Source: Candidatus Zhuqueibacterota bacterium | GTDB lineage: Bacteria; Zhuqueibacterota; Zhuqueibacteria; Thermofontimicrobiales; Thermofontimicrobiaceae | DNA length: 64,000 nt | Direction of reading: 5' to 3' | Assembly: GCA_049322915.1 (NCBI GenBank) | Contig: JBMOPW010000016.1 | Coordinates: 71,971 to 135,970 of the forward strand | Shown: in pieces, positions 28,968 through 33,691 of the stretch | How the letters are laid out: the number at the start of each line of letters is the position of its first letter | How positions within the stretch are numbered: the stretch's first letter is position 1 | Program-made: the position numbers and the translations under genes | Notes under the pieces: generated by a model | The model's input: the letters and a program-made list of their open reading frames with translations, nothing else | Database searches by the model: none | What the model was told of the DNA's origin: nothing

Positions 28968-29900
28968 ATGGTACAAACATCAAAAAGATTCCGCAGAGTT
29001 TATCAGAGCTTAACCAATTTTGAACTCCAGAGAACGTCATCCGCCGATAAGCTCATTTCGACGGAAGACATTCTGGGCGATTTGGAGGAAAAGGAACGAC
29101 CCCATTTGTTCCTGAATTTTTACTCGGAATTGGGAATCCAGAAAGCGCTCGAAGAATATGGCATTTTCCACGATTTGAACAAGCGCGGTTTTTTTAATTT
29201 CATCACACGAATCGATGCGCAGGACCCCTATCGGCATACGCTGAAATTGTTCTACGAGAAGGAAGACGTCGACCACCTGCTGGGCGAGTTGTATGTTCGG
29301 AAAAAATATTTCATTGCCAAGCCTGTCTTCCCTTCGGAAATTTCCGGCCAGAAATTTTCCATGATCGTGATAGAATGGCTCACGCTGCAAGACCCCACTG
29401 CGGAGTTCACAACGCGACGTCCCCCGTTGCCGGGACAAATTTTCCCCGGGCTGAGGATCGGGCGAAAAATTGTGGGGATTTTTGTGAATATGGCGCTGCG
29501 GCTCAAGACGGATGGACTGCTCAATATTCCGGACCATTACCACAATGCCGTGTTTTATTCGAAGCATTTCAAATATTTCAATCCGACCACCGAGGGACAG
29601 TTTTTGGCCATGCAGCGTGATTTGCGCATGTTGGGTTTATTCAAAGCCGCCTGGGCTGTGGAATTGAATTGCATTCTCGAAGAAAATTCCAGCAAGCCGT
29701 GGCAGTGGTTCACGGACGAACAGGTCCTGTTTGTGAGCAGAAAAATGGAGAAGTATTTTGAGGCGGATGAATACCAGGATCATGTGGCCGAAGCGTTCGC
29801 TCAATACAAATTCACCATTGATGAGGAGAAGTTCAACCATTTGATCAAAGAGCAGCCATTTTGCGCCATGGTTCCTGAATTGATGGAGCAAATGGCGTAA
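28968..29900 (+). CDS. Conserved hypothetical protein (resembles a domain fused to some bacterial deacetylases; possible GNAT-like fold)
   Basis: IEWLTLQDP...RPPLPGQIFPGLRIG...DGLLNIPDHYHNA motif pattern. Confidence 0.55.
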   Translation: MVQTSKRFRRVYQSLTNFELQRTSSADKLISTEDILGDLEEKERPHLFLNFYSELGIQKALEEYGIFHDLNKRGFFNFITRIDAQDPYRHTLKLFYEKEDVDHLLGELYVRKKYFIAKPVFPSEISGQKFSMIVIEWLTLQDPTAEFTTRRPPLPGQIFPGLRIGRKIVGIFVNMALRLKTDGLLNIPDHYHNAVFYSKHFKYFNPTTEGQFLAMQRDLRMLGLFKAAWAVELNCILEENSSKPWQWFTDEQVLFVSRKMEKYFEADEYQDHVAEAFAQYKFTIDEEKFNHLIKEQPFCAMVPELMEQMA

Positions 29901-30095
29901 CCTGATTTGGGCAGGGAACCGCTCGTGAATCGATCGCTTCGTGAACTGGCAGCGTCTGTTGTGATCATCCAGGCAATGCCCGCAGTCGACGCGATTCGGC
30001 GGCACGAATTAGAACTCGCAGGAAAGACTCCAGCTTCGTTTTTGGTGGAAAGACCAGGTTGTTTTTTCATAGAATTTTATTTCAATAATAAATGC

Positions 30096-30140
30096 AAACA
30101 CCCGAAATCACAATGTTCCTTCGATTTCGGGTGTTTTATT
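30096..30140. terminator. Probable bidirectional terminator between convergent genes
   Basis: aaacacccgaaatc/gatttcgggtgttt stem with flanking A- and T-rich runs. Confidence 0.6.
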
Positions 30141-30172
30141 TTTTACCATTGGCGTTGAACAATGTATCAAAA

Positions 30173-31537
30173 TTAATCCACAGGTGGATAATCTTCGATC
30201 ATCTTCAGCGTCTCCTGAATTTGCTTTTCCGGCAATTCGTAGTTCGTCAGTTGGCCATCATTGAATTTATCGTAGGAGCCCATATCAAAATGGCCGTGGC
30301 CGCTGAGGTTGAACAGAATTGTCTTTTTCTGGCCTTCCTTTTTAGCCTTTTCTGCCTCGACGATGGTGGCGCGAATGGCATGCGACGATTCCGGCGCCGG
30401 GAGAATGCCTTCGGTGCGGGCGAAGAGACGAGCCGCTTCAAACACTTCGATCTGTTTGTAGGCGGCAGCTTCGATGTGTTTTTCCCGAACCAGGTGGCTG
30501 ATGAGCGGCGCCATACCATGATAGCGCAAACCGCCGGCATGGATTGGAGGCGGAACAAACTTATGGCCCAGCGTGTACATGGCCATGAGCGGCGTCATTT
30601 CCGCGTTGTCGCCAAAATCATAGGCATACGGTCCGCGAGTCAGCGTGGGACACGATGCCGGCTCCACCGCAATTGCCCGGACTTTCTGCCCTTCGAATTT
30701 ATCTTTGCAGAATGGGAAAACCAATCCCGCAAAATTGCTGCCCCCGCCGACGCATCCGATGATGACATCCGGATAGTCGCCGGCGATTTCCATCTGCTTT
30801 TTCGCTTCAAGTCCCACAATGGTCTGATGCAGCAGCACATGGTTCAGCACGCTTCCCAGCGAGTATTTGGTATCTTCGCGGCTTACCGCTTCTTCCACTG
30901 CTTCGCTTATGGCGATGCCCAGGCTGCCGGGGGAATCCGGATTCTCCGCCAGAATCATGCGACCGGCATTGGTCTCATTGCTGGGACTTGGAATAACCGT
31001 AGCGCCCCACGTCATAATCATGGCGCGGCGATACGGCTTCTGCTGATAGCTGATTTTCACCATGTAAACTTTGCATTCGATCCCAAAGTAATTGCAGGCA
31101 AGGCTCAGCGCGCTGCCCCATTGACCGGCGCCTGTTTCGGTGGTGATGCGTTTCACGCCTTCCATTTTGTTGTAATAGGCCTGAGCCACCGCAGTATTGG
31201 GTTTATGGCTGCCGGCCGGACTGACGCCTTCATATTTATAATAGATTTTTGCCGGCGTATCCAGCGCCTTTTCCAGCCGCCAGGCGCGGTACAGCGGAGA
31301 TGGCCGCCATAATCTATAAATATCCCGCACTTCATCCGGAATGTCGATCCAGCGATCGGTGCTCACTTCCTGCTTGATCAACTCCATCGGAAACAGCGGA
31401 GCCAGGTCGGCCGGCCCCACCGGCTGTTTTGTCCCCGGGTGAAGCACCGGCGGCATGGGCTTTGGTAAATCAGCTTGAATGTTGTACCATTGACGCGGTA
31501 AATCTTTTTCGTGCAATAGGATTTTCGTGTCGCTCAT
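30173..31537 (-). CDS. trpB2: Tryptophan synthase beta chain 2 (TrpB2, TrpB-like PLP enzyme)
   Basis: [21 protein letters not shown] lysine in [51 protein letters not shown] and LSGHG. Confidence 0.95.
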
Positions 31538-31582
31538 TTTTTTCTCCTTTGGATTAGAAGTAAATATGAATAGACGTGTTTG

Positions 31583-32437
31583 TTATTCATCAAACAAAAA
31601 CGTCGGCTCATGATAAAACCGAATTGATTTATCTTTGATTTGATCGTTGATTCGCTTGTTCAGCCAATGGTTCTTTTGTGCCGCGGAAACATCGAAGCGC
31701 AGCAAGTCCAGTGGCACATTCAATCGAAGCGCCCGCTTTGGCAGAATAATGCGGGTGATTCCGCTGGGAATTCTCATCCCGTGGTCGGTCACCTGCACAA
31801 GTTCTTCTTTGGTAATTTTACGAAACACAATGAGGGCGCTGAATTGAGGGTAATTATTTTTGAGATGCTCCAGATTGGTGTAGCTCACGCGGTCCATGAA
31901 TTGCGAACCGTGATACAAATCGGTAATGCCTTGTAAATCTCTCACGCGTTGAAACAAATCCTCGTGCGCGCGCACAGCAAAGATAGAGGCATCGGCAAAT
32001 TGAATCTGACAGAGCAGTTCGCCATCTTCTTCGTTCGTTATGCTCGTCCCGGACGTCTGAGCAATTGAAATCTCAGGCAATTTTGCAATGTTCGACAGGA
32101 AGAGCTCTTTGGAAAACTGCTCCACAGCGTGATGCCATTGAAGGAAAATGAGGCCGGGATCGAACAGGTCAATCTCCTGAACCAGCACATCAGGAATATC
32201 CAGCTTTTGCAGGGCTGTCAATCGGTTGGCGCCGTCAAGAAGGATGTGTTTGGTTGTCCCGGCATGGGTGGCGACAACCGGGGGATTTTTCAATCTGTTC
32301 TCTTTCCGAAGATATTCGACGAGTCGTGCGGATCGCTCGGTGTCCGGCTCTTCATGAAAAATGATGTCTGAAATGGGGAGAATTTTGAGCTTTGGCAATT
32401 CGCCGATTTTGAGCAGCTTATCATTTTTTAAATCCAC
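31583..32437 (-). CDS. ParB/Srx-fold free L-serine kinase candidate (SbnI/SerK-like), 284 aa
   Basis: IFHEE...NPPVV...LLDGANRLTAL core. C-terminal IPSGITRIILPKRALRLNVPL resembles the SbnI tail. No HTH seen. GTG start follows AAGGAGG. Confidence 0.7.
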   Translation of the reverse strand: MDLKNDKLLKIGELPKLKILPISDIIFHEEPDTERSARLVEYLRKENRLKNPPVVATHAGTTKHILLDGANRLTALQKLDIPDVLVQEIDLFDPGLIFLQWHHAVEQFSKELFLSNIAKLPEISIAQTSGTSITNEEDGELLCQIQFADASIFAVRAHEDLFQRVRDLQGITDLYHGSQFMDRVSYTNLEHLKNNYPQFSALIVFRKITKEELVQVTDHGMRIPSGITRIILPKRALRLNVPLDLLRFDVSAAQKNHWLNKRINDQIKDKSIRFYHEPTFLFDE

Positions 32438-32564
32438 GTAGCCTCCTTGATGTCTGATGAGTTTGTTAGACCATGCAGTTATTCCGTACATCTTTCTGGT
32501 TCTGATTTCACGGTAATGTGCAGTTGAATTTCCACGCTTCGATGCGCCGGGTTTGGCATAGAAT

Positions 32565-32597
32565 AAAAAACCCACTTTATGAGTCGATAAAGTGGGT
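32565..32597 (-). terminator. Attenuator terminator (proximal)
   Basis: Perfect 11-bp stem acccactttat/ataaagtgggt followed by a U-tract on the minus strand. Confidence 0.85.
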
Positions 32598-32623
32598 CGG
32601 ATTCGGCTTAAATATTCCTTGAG

Positions 32624-32734
32624 CTACACATCGAATTTGAGCAAATCCGCCACACCAATGGGTACACGCCACCAGCACCAATTGGAAATTGTCGACATAA
32701 AACCAAGTAACTTTGTGACGATAAATTTGCTCAT
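32624..32734 (-). CDS. trpL: Trp leader peptide 1 (MSKFIVTKLLGFMSTISNWCWWRVPIGVADLLKFDV)
   Basis: 36-aa ORF read by hand, with codons TGG-TGC-TGG-TGG and an AGGA RBS. Alternative in-frame ATG at 32698. It lies just 5' of the terminator and carries the antiterminator arm. Confidence 0.8.
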   Translation of the reverse strand: MSKFIVTKLLGFMSTISNWCWWRVPIGVADLLKFDV

Positions 32735-32764
32735 GCGTAAATGTCCTGATTTAAAGTTTTTGTC

Positions 32765-32792
32765 AATATACACAAAAATAATTCATTGTCAA
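32765..32792 (-). promoter_or_regulatory. Sigma70 promoter for the leader 1-kinase-trpB2 unit
   Basis: TTGACA-16 nt-TATATT. Confidence 0.7.
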
Positions 32793-32875
32793 GATAAATT
32801 ATAGTAAATTTCAAACCGGAGGTGAAATGAGAATATCGATGATGTCCGGTTTGGATTCAGTATTCCCGATGAAAT

Positions 32876-32902
32876 AAAAAACCCACTTGTGATAAGTGGG
32901 TT
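32876..32902 (-). terminator. Attenuator terminator (distal)
   Basis: Stem aacccactt/aagtgggtt with a U-tract. Shares the acccactt/aagtgggt core with the proximal terminator. Confidence 0.8.
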
Positions 32903-32928
32903 GGAATTGCAAAGTTACCGTCGATGGA

Positions 32929-33024
32929 TCAGCGACATATTTCCGCCCCACAGATAATAATACGCCAGCGCCACTGGGCGCTGATGATTGCGTTCGTACG
33001 ATGTAATAAAGTGGAGCGAGCCAT
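32929..33024 (-). CDS. Trp leader peptide 2 (MARSTLLHRTNAIISAQWRWRIIICGAEICR)
   Basis: 31-aa ORF with TGG-CGC-TGG-CGT. The segment gtggggcggaa can pair with ttccaacccac, the 5' arm of the distal terminator. Confidence 0.65.
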   Translation of the reverse strand: MARSTLLHRTNAIISAQWRWRIIICGAEICR

Positions 33025-33058
33025 TCGAAACCCCAATTGGTTTGATTTGACGAATTAA

Positions 33059-33158
33059 CCCTACTACGTCACTTAGAATTATTAGCACAATATATCGTAT
33101 TTTCTGGCAACTTAACATAAAATATATTGTGCAGAACTTGCTAAATGACGGAGTAGGG
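33059..33158. mobile_element. MITE-like element C (100 bp, TTAA target duplication)
   Basis: TTAA|ccctactacgtca...tgacggagtaggg|TTAA. Related copies at 46882-46981 and 63417-63681. Confidence 0.85.
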
Positions 33159-33488
33159 TTAATTGCCAAGCACTTTATCAAGTTTCGATTTGATGTTTTG
33201 TTTAGGAACTGCGCCGACGATCTGTTCCACCACTTTTCCGCCTTTGAAAATCAGTAGCGTGGGGATGCTTCGAATGCCGTATTTAATGGCAACACTCTGG
33301 TTTCGATCCACATCGCATTTGGCCATTTTCACTTTACCGTCATAATCCTTTGAAAGCTCTTCAACGATCGGGGCGATCATCTTGCAGGGACCGCACCAGA
33401 CTGCCCAGAAATCAATCAAGACCGGCGTATCGGATTTAATAACTTCACTTTCAAAATTAGCTTCCGTAATCGTGACTAAATTGCTCAT
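33159..33488 (-). CDS. trxA: Thioredoxin
   Basis: DFWAVWCGPC and IRSIPTL. 109 aa from ATG 33488 after GAGG. Confidence 0.96.
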   Translation of the reverse strand: MSNLVTITEANFESEVIKSDTPVLIDFWAVWCGPCKMIAPIVEELSKDYDGKVKMAKCDVDRNQSVAIKYGIRSIPTLLIFKGGKVVEQIVGAVPKQNIKSKLDKVLGN

Positions 33489-33537
33489 TGTCCAACCTCT
33501 TCCCGTTTGTTCATCCAAGTCAAAAAAATTGTGGCTA

Positions 33538-33566
33538 AAGATAAAAATAATCCAGTAAAATTGCAA
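33538..33566 (-). promoter_or_regulatory. Putative sigma70 promoter for trxA
   Basis: TTGCAA-17 nt-TATCTT. Confidence 0.5.
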
Positions 33567-33691
33567 GCAGAATTTTTTCGCCCGGGAAAATTGTCGGCGA
33601 CGTACGACGTCACCGCTTGCCGAACCTTCATCCCTGCAAATTCTGCGTTCCAGCCGTGTTCCGGAATGACCCCCCTGTCGCCGGGAATGCA

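Follow-up and report, generated by a model that had tools for sequence, protein, structure and literature searches.

We analysed a 64,000-nucleotide stretch of a Candidatus Zhuqueibacterota genome (assembly GCA_049322915.1, contig JBMOPW010000016.1, positions 71,971 to 135,970 of the forward strand), hereafter the window, and describe in it a gene for a kinase-like protein that stands directly before trpB2. Both genes lie on the minus strand. The first, an SbnI/SerK-like gene for a predicted free L-serine kinase (window positions 31583-32437), has a GTG start at 32437 with AGGAGG six bases ahead of it (32447-32442), and its product of 284 amino acids (aa) has a length backed by its relatives, most of the 120 listed being exactly 284 aa. 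The second, trpB2 (30173-31537), encodes a protein of 454 aa that is the only TrpB homologue in the genome. The 45-bp spacer between them (31538-31582), as read from the sequence, carries AAAGGAG ahead of the trpB2 ATG, and a site scan listed no promoter-like or terminator-like sites within it. Upstream of the pair lie two short leader open reading frames (ORFs) with Trp codons, each followed by an intrinsic terminator. What appears to be new here is the pairing of a serine-kinase-like gene with trpB2, probably under shared control; the SbnI and SerK kinases, TrpB2 and trp attenuation are each known.

An earlier note on this DNA, made from the sequence alone, had pointed to a gene on the trpB2 strand whose end is separated from trpB2 by 45 bp, to H-E and D-G-x-x-R motifs and the tail IPSGITRIILPKRALRLNVPL in its product, to a ParB/Srx fold lacking a helix-turn-helix (HTH), to Trp-codon attenuators, and to the absence of other trp genes nearby. 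The coordinates, the translation, the leader region and a Pfam search showing no HTH or other DNA-binding domain bear out all of this, and trp genes other than trpB2 are found neither next to the pair nor anywhere in the genome. The note had also expected annotation pipelines to label the protein as a ParB N-terminal domain protein. This proved wrong: there is no Pfam domain, the source records say 'hypothetical protein', and PF02195 is precomputed for only one of the 120 listed relatives.

The 284-aa protein is, by its sequence and predicted fold, a full-length homologue of SbnI and SerK. A phmmer search of PDB sequences matched SbnI over the full length (E 2.6e-10) and PF0380 at E 1.7e-3, while a profile built from 49 relatives reached SbnI at 1.4e-21, PF0380 at 2e-7 and SerK at 4e-5. 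Pfam returned no family even up to E 10, and the features of a ParB chromosome-partition protein (Pfam ParB N-terminal domain, HTH and C-terminal dimerisation domain) were not found. In an AlphaFold2 model with a predicted local distance difference test score of 85.4 and a predicted template modelling (TM) score of 0.81, the top nine Foldseek matches in the PDB were solely SbnI, SerK and PF0380 (E 3e-16 to 7e-14; TM 0.75-0.81 by target length; 235-273 aligned columns covering both domains). Matches to the folds of Srx (sulfiredoxin), Noc and ParB covered just the ~80 N-terminal residues. Alignment and modelling against SbnI and SerK, the check that the earlier note had called for, also place the Glu and Asp where they are expected. 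H28-E29 aligns with H29-E30 of SerK and H19-E20 of SbnI, D68-G69-x-x-R72 with the D-G-x-x-R of both, and T228-R229 is common to all three proteins. E29 and D68 match SbnI Glu20 and Asp58, whose roles we take to be catalytic; for SerK, structures of the E30A and E30Q mutants exist in the PDB. H28-E29, D68-G-x-x-R72 and T228-R229 are invariant in the 49 relatives, and the tail IPSGITRIILPKRALRLNVPL is invariant or nearly so.

The homology to SbnI raises the question of whether this protein is mainly a regulator or sensor of trpB2 expression or activity, as SbnI is in part. PDB entry 6nr6 (SbnI) was indeed deposited as 'Bifunctional transcriptional regulator/O-phospho-L-serine synthase', and the C-terminal tail KSIRFYxEPTFLFDE, which is invariant in the relatives and of low confidence in the AlphaFold2 model, could be a docking motif. 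We nevertheless consider a mainly regulatory role very unlikely. Pfam shows neither an HTH nor any other DNA-binding domain in the protein, there is no variation in the catalytic Glu or the D-G-x-x-R motif among the 49 relatives, and the leader attenuators already account for regulation. A complex prediction for TrpB2 and the kinase-like protein (score 0.00, mark 0.32) is evidence neither way.

The product of trpB2 scores above the cut-offs of two TrpB2 models (NF009057, 770.3 bits, cut-off 366; TIGR01415, 676.5 bits, cut-off 518.85) and below that of the TrpB1 model (155.3 bits, cut-off 392.45). Among solved structures it comes closest to 6hul_B (E 6e-139) and 4qys_B (E 1e-123), both Sulfolobus TrpB2. 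According to the available text of PMC11917138, the dependence of TrpB2 on O-phosphoserine was reported in 2014 (Busch 2014), and TrpB2 enzymes use O-phosphoserine and bind indole with high affinity (Busch 2014; Hettwer & Sterner 2002). By analogy with these enzymes, the window's TrpB2 would prefer O-phosphoserine.

The leader region comprises two attenuator units in tandem, both on the minus strand. The proximal unit has a sigma-70-like promoter (TTGACA-16-TATATT, 32765-32792, 11 of 12 matches), a leader ORF of 36 codons, MSKFIVTKLLGFMSTISNWCWWRVPIGVADLLKFDV (32624-32734, ATG at 32734), and an intrinsic terminator (32560-32598) formed by the 12-bp stem GACCCACTTTAT/ATAAAGTGGGTT (32598-32569) and a T-tract. 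The Trp codons of its W-C-W-W run lie at 32680-32678 and 32674-32669. In a predicted antiterminator (32592-32656), the segment GGUGUGGCGGAUU (32656-32644), which is part of the leader ORF, base-pairs with AAUCCGACCCAC (32603-32592), a segment that includes the terminator's 5' arm. Since the 5' strand of the antiterminator belongs to the leader ORF, it would be masked by a ribosome that translates as far as the stop codon, and the terminator could then form. The antiterminator has a folding energy of -19.7 kcal/mol in RNA that begins immediately downstream of a ribosome halted at the last Trp codon and in which the 3' arm of the terminator has not yet been made. Across 18 aligned proximal leaders, antiterminator cells are paired in 86% of cases, compared with 25-54% for slid controls, and three terminator pairs show compensatory changes.

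The distal unit consists of the leader ORF MARSTLLHRTNAIISAQWRWRIIICGAEICR (32929-33024, ATG at 33024), whose W-R-W Trp codons (32973-32971 and 32967-32965) lie within a 7-8-bp hairpin (32984-32965), and the terminator AACCCACTTATCACAAGTGGGTT with its T-tract (32871-32902, stem 32902-32880). Folding of the nascent RNA finds an analogous alternative pairing here too. The closest related locus (L005) retains the two units with the intervening promoter, including the distal terminator and a nearly identical promoter block; its distal leader, directly behind trxA, reads NWWWWR at the same place. Ahead of the first gene there is thus a short ORF with clustered regulatory codons and then an intrinsic terminator, which is the layout of an attenuator. 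An Rfam search over 29800-33600 gave, up to E 1, an unrelated small RNA model as its only match (19.1 bits, gathering threshold 49.5).

The genome that holds the window comprises 6.25 Mb in 45 contigs, is 96.3% complete and is missing the rest of the tryptophan pathway. Searches for trpA, trpC, trpF and the chorismate-binding domain of trpE matched nothing, trpD gave only a 30-bit match, and no TrpB1 passed the cut-off, although each trp-gene search scored in all 14 control genomes. The genome check proposed in the earlier note thus finds trpA, trpC, trpD, trpE and trpF absent. Within the order, trpC occurs in 4 of 21 genomes, and trpA is confined to these four among the 19 of the 21 that were sampled for it, so that the absence looks like a loss of the trp pathway and not like assembly gaps. 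Among 50 kinase-bearing genomes reached through related loci (nine loci left out of the count), trpA was over the cut-off in 16, and in none of the 12 closest. The enzymes of classical O-phosphoserine metabolism are likewise not recognisable: SerC type 1, SerC type 3 and SerB all fell below their cut-offs in this genome, with best scores of 29.7, 27.2 and 29 bits.

The genome also encodes a tryptophanase-family enzyme of 457 aa (G000:C3:90586-91713; L068:1390-2763, minus strand; NF009709, 693 bits, over the cut-off), which reaches neither the TnaA nor the tyrosine phenol-lyase equivalog cut-off. Judged by this gene content, the organism may itself release indole or phenol while having no de novo tryptophan synthesis.

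The pairing of the two genes is conserved well beyond this genome. We scanned one genome per species and obtained 59 loci encoding a kinase relative, labelled as KSB1, Calditrichota, Gemmatimonadota, Zixibacteria, Ignavibacteria, Eiseniibacteriota and others. In 53 of the 59, trpB2 lies directly downstream on the same strand, in line with the conservation in other genomes that the earlier note's proposal required. Of the six other loci, four are cut by a contig edge (L009, L018, L035 and L046), leaving L058 and the distant L063 (31% identity) as the real exceptions. The Trp-sensing leaders recur as well. Upstream regions of 300 nt or more from the window and 55 loci were compared, with four shorter regions left out. 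Defining a W-run leader as at least 3 in-frame TGG within 6 codons, we found one in 36 of these 56 regions, against 0 of 56 on the reverse strand. Homologues of the proximal leader are among them, some of the runs reach five Trp codons, and 34 of the 36 are followed by an intrinsic terminator.

Not all TrpB2 genes have a kinase neighbour. We drew a sample of 151 genomes from the phylum, including the window's own and the unpublished genomes G194 and G138. TrpB2 (E <= 1e-100) occurs in 100 of these genomes and trpA over its cut-off in 92, while TIGR01364-type SerC is found in 70 at E <= 1e-20 (60 over the cut-off). The kinase is found in 29 genomes and is confined to five families. For a cross-tabulation, we counted SerC as TIGR01364 at E <= 1e-20, setting aside four matches of 99-110 bits in kinase-bearing genomes, and trpA as over the cut-off. 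Of the 25 genomes with both TrpB2 and the kinase, none has TIGR01364-type SerC and 6 have trpA; of the 75 with TrpB2 and no kinase, 55 have this SerC and 46 have trpA. Thus, the kinase is found in genomes that show no classical source of O-phosphoserine.

We also inspected 20 kinase-less trpB2 loci from the same phylum. A leader with a run of Trp codons directly precedes trpB2 in eight, and in another kind of arrangement a TrpR-family gene (PF01371, 57-61 bits) stands directly upstream in four (L076:2164-2469, plus strand; L077:2306-2611, minus; L079:2272-2565, minus; L084:1960-2487, plus), on the same strand as trpB2 and 4 to 39 nt away or overlapping it. The kinase-family profile found nothing below E 0.2 among the ORFs flanking trpB2 in these 20 loci, and a shortened 'mini' serine kinase beside kinase-less trpB2 was therefore rejected. 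Whether or not the kinase is present, TrpB2 is thus linked to the supply of tryptophan.

This bears on whether TrpB2 makes tryptophan here at all. TrpB-type enzymes accept other nucleophiles, so that the enzyme could make a different product, or it could chiefly remove toxic indole, which the tryptophanase-family enzyme in the genome could release; the neighbouring gene would then serve that chemistry. We judge this highly improbable, given that runs of up to five leader Trp codons tie expression to the charging of tRNA-Trp, that even kinase-less trpB2 genes stand behind Trp-codon leaders or beside TrpR-family genes, and that the genome has no other route to tryptophan.

Four genomes of family f10, genus g36 (G114, G171, G194 and G147) carry a lower-scoring kinase subgroup that does not adjoin trpB2. 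Its three full-length matches score ~242-248 bits, from position 14. TrpB2 at E <= 1e-100 is not found in G114, G147 or G171 and is on another contig in G194.

In agreement with the earlier note, and with good support from comparative evidence, we consider it likely that the window encodes an operon of two genes, induced by tryptophan starvation, for the salvage of indole via O-phosphoserine. When charged tRNA-Trp is scarce, ribosomes translating the leaders would halt at the Trp codons. The stalled ribosome would leave the antiterminator strand free to pair with the terminator's 5' arm, and RNA polymerase would read on into the operon, with both genes presumably on one transcript. The 284-aa protein, as a third branch beside SbnI and SerK, is predicted to convert L-serine to O-phospho-L-serine, and TrpB2 would then combine O-phosphoserine with indole from the surroundings to give tryptophan. 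The kinase-TrpB2 pair is probably the only route to tryptophan in this organism, and the kinase probably supplies a pool of O-phosphoserine that the cell does not otherwise make.

Several observations weigh against this interpretation or restrict it. The NCBIfam equivalog models for SbnI (NF033589, 65.2 bits, cut-off 350) and SerK (NF053625, 37.8 bits, cut-off 380) both score the 284-aa protein far below their cut-offs, and identity is ~20% to SbnI and ~16% to SerK; it is therefore an orthologue of neither and belongs to a third family. The phosphate donor could be ATP, ADP or another nucleotide, given that a SerK-like protein bound CTP in a survey of ParB-fold proteins, as far as the available part of that paper goes (PMC12704722). 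Regarding the attenuator, equilibrium folding with the ribosome footprint masked keeps the proximal terminator as the best structure, and folding favours the antiterminator only while the terminator still lacks its 3' arm; the switch would therefore have to be kinetic. Covariation in the antiterminator is modest, since 9 of 500 shuffles reached its count of double changes and 98 of 500 its covariation score.

Furthermore, a Trp-codon leader is missing from 20 of the 56 upstream regions. It is absent from the loci of the Zixibacteria and Ignavibacteria type (L044, L048 and L052-L062), which keep the kinase gene and, in all but L058, trpB2 directly downstream. Rfam matched nothing at the gathering threshold in a set of 16 related loci, the majority of which lack such a leader, and gave no match in nine loci of the Zixibacteria and Ignavibacteria type (L044, L048, L052, L054, L055, L057 and L059-L061). 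The kinase is also missing from 75 of the 100 TrpB2 genomes and so is no general need of TrpB2, and 20 TrpB2 genomes have neither the kinase nor TIGR01364-type SerC. The complementarity of the kinase and SerC is itself suggestive only, because the sampled genomes are related and the counts are not independent. On a quick tree of 67 TrpB2 proteins (47 linked to the kinase and 20 unlinked, matches of fewer than 400 residues dropped), the two labels are interspersed, with 7 label changes of which at least 3 are forced, a pattern suggestive of repeated gain or loss of the kinase. A separate clade of kinase-linked TrpB2 proteins was considered and rejected on the same tree.

The earlier note had further called the module independent of SerA and SerC. 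This claim is suggestive only. SerC and SerB are not recognisable in the genome, which encodes a SerA-like dehydrogenase of 340 aa (246 bits, cut-off 454) and a class-V aminotransferase of 361 aa, with which an unconventional route to O-phosphoserine might exist. These two enzymes also count against the proposed dependence on the kinase.

The wider family adds a further perspective. With a profile search of 1.84 billion representatives, 1475 proteins were retrieved at E <= 0.001, of which 853 pass E <= 1e-10 and 324 pass E <= 1e-30. The 150 best include two proteins (P0184 and P0247, 582-586 aa) that are full fusions with a dehydrogenase best matched by phosphoglycerate dehydrogenase (in P0184, 375 bits over the catalytic part), together with shorter forms carrying pieces of a phosphoglycerate-dehydrogenase-like domain. 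A distant kinase relative, P0213 (371 aa), is fused to a ThiS/SAMP-like domain. Going by domain architecture, these fusions hint at ties of the superfamily to phosphoserine and sulfur-carrier chemistry, and some members may work in serine synthesis.

Such fusions lend some weight to a reading in which the ParB-fold protein is a phosphotransferase with another role. It might run in reverse from phosphoserine to serine, act on another hydroxy-amino acid, or make O-phosphoserine mainly for other enzymes, and TrpB2 would then use free serine or O-phosphoserine from elsewhere. The partial text of the GapMind paper points the same way, in that a different SbnI-like family, DUF1015, is proposed there as a replacement for SerB (PMC13759103), and so does the absence of the kinase from three quarters of TrpB2 genomes noted above. 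We regard this alternative as unlikely. The kinase gene is tightly paired with trpB2 across the related loci, it is controlled through Trp codons and not through serine or cysteine signals, and its complementarity with canonical SerC fits a supply of O-phosphoserine to TrpB2.

The proposed operon has a close counterpart in the staphyloferrin B system of Staphylococcus. There, SbnI is an ATP-dependent free L-serine kinase that feeds SbnA, a pyridoxal 5'-phosphate (PLP) enzyme that uses O-phosphoserine. The 284-aa protein shares with SbnI its two-domain fold (TM about 0.8), full-length similarity, the His-Glu pair, D-G-x-x-R and the P-x-G-x-T-R tail, and, like that of SbnI, its gene sits in a presumed operon with a fold-type-II PLP beta-replacement enzyme that is expected to use O-phosphoserine. 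In contrast to the SbnI system, the partner is TrpB2 and not SbnA, the product would be tryptophan and not a siderophore precursor, and control is by Trp-codon attenuators.

SerK and PF0380 (1vk1) have the same fold over both domains, with SerK Glu30 and D-G-x-x-R aligned. SerK of Thermococcus kodakarensis (TK0378; PDB 5x0b) is ADP-dependent and makes O-phosphoserine for a PLP enzyme in cysteine synthesis, according to the part of its description that was available (PMC5120207). Whereas SerK is archaeal and linked to cysteine, the window protein is bacterial and linked to tryptophan.

Stand-alone TrpB2 enzymes (Sulfolobus, 4qys and 6hul; Thermotoga; Thermococcus) are O-phosphoserine-dependent tryptophan synthases of indole salvage, and they resemble the window's TrpB2 in having no trpA nearby. 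Here, unlike in those cases, a kinase-like gene precedes trpB2 and the genome is without the rest of the trp pathway. The leaders share with the trp attenuator of the Escherichia coli type their clustered Trp codons, a U-tract terminator and an alternative pairing over the 5' arm of the terminator. They differ from it in being two in tandem, the distal one behind trxA, in having no Rfam match, and in placing the 5' strand of the antiterminator within the leader ORF.

The earlier note knew of no description of a serine kinase dedicated to tryptophan synthesis, and our literature search agrees. In the literature searched, which included few subscription journals, so that an earlier account is possible, nothing links TrpB2 with a serine kinase, SerK, SbnI or a ParB-like protein, and we found no account there of the source of O-phosphoserine for stand-alone TrpB2. 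The word tryptophan does not occur in the available text of the SerK paper (PMC5120207) or in that of the 2025 ParB-fold survey (PMC12704722).

Other features surround the pair. A weak terminator-like hairpin (31603-31622, minus strand; 7 pairs followed by CGTTTTTGTT) falls within the last codons of the kinase gene, overlapping those of the invariant C-terminus, and probably arises as a side effect of the coding sequence. Terminator-like sites in the scan numbered 7, with 4.1 expected. Convergent with trpB2 is an ORF of 310 aa (28968-29900, plus strand) with no Pfam match and just 12.8 bits in NCBIfam. An ORF of the same length upstream of trpB2 in locus L069 was considered as its relative and rejected as unrelated. 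The 12-bp inverted repeat between the convergent ORF and trpB2 (30098-30134) could serve as a bidirectional transcription end; it is not listed in the terminator scan because its loop exceeds the limit of the scan.

A near-perfect palindrome of ~110 nt (33048-33162; -46.4 kcal/mol, z -8.5) separates the trxA stop codon from the distal leader and is missing from the corresponding spot in L005. Searching the genome with it yielded 65 matches, roughly ten of which have 90-95% identity; owing to the palindromic symmetry, many sites are matched on both strands. It looks like a dispersed repeat of the miniature inverted-repeat transposable element or repetitive extragenic palindromic type, inserted behind trxA.

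If our interpretation is correct, the presence of a kinase in the absence of the SerC route would account for the substrate supply of stand-alone TrpB2. This answer would cover a broad set of uncultured bacteria, including KSB1, Calditrichota, Gemmatimonadota, Zixibacteria, Ignavibacteria and others. Tryptophan would join cysteine and staphyloferrin B as a third end product of PLP enzymes fed by a serine kinase, and a large unannotated family (324 clusters at E <= 1e-30; 1475 at E <= 0.001) would gain a function. We see an even chance that the lineage is an obligate indole cross-feeder, which has lost the whole trp pathway, has no recognisable SerC or SerB, and makes O-phosphoserine with the kinase solely for TrpB2. 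Such a gene pair would mark its bearers as dependent on indole from their neighbours, which would bear on cross-feeding in biofilms and sediments and on the prediction of auxotrophy from genomes.

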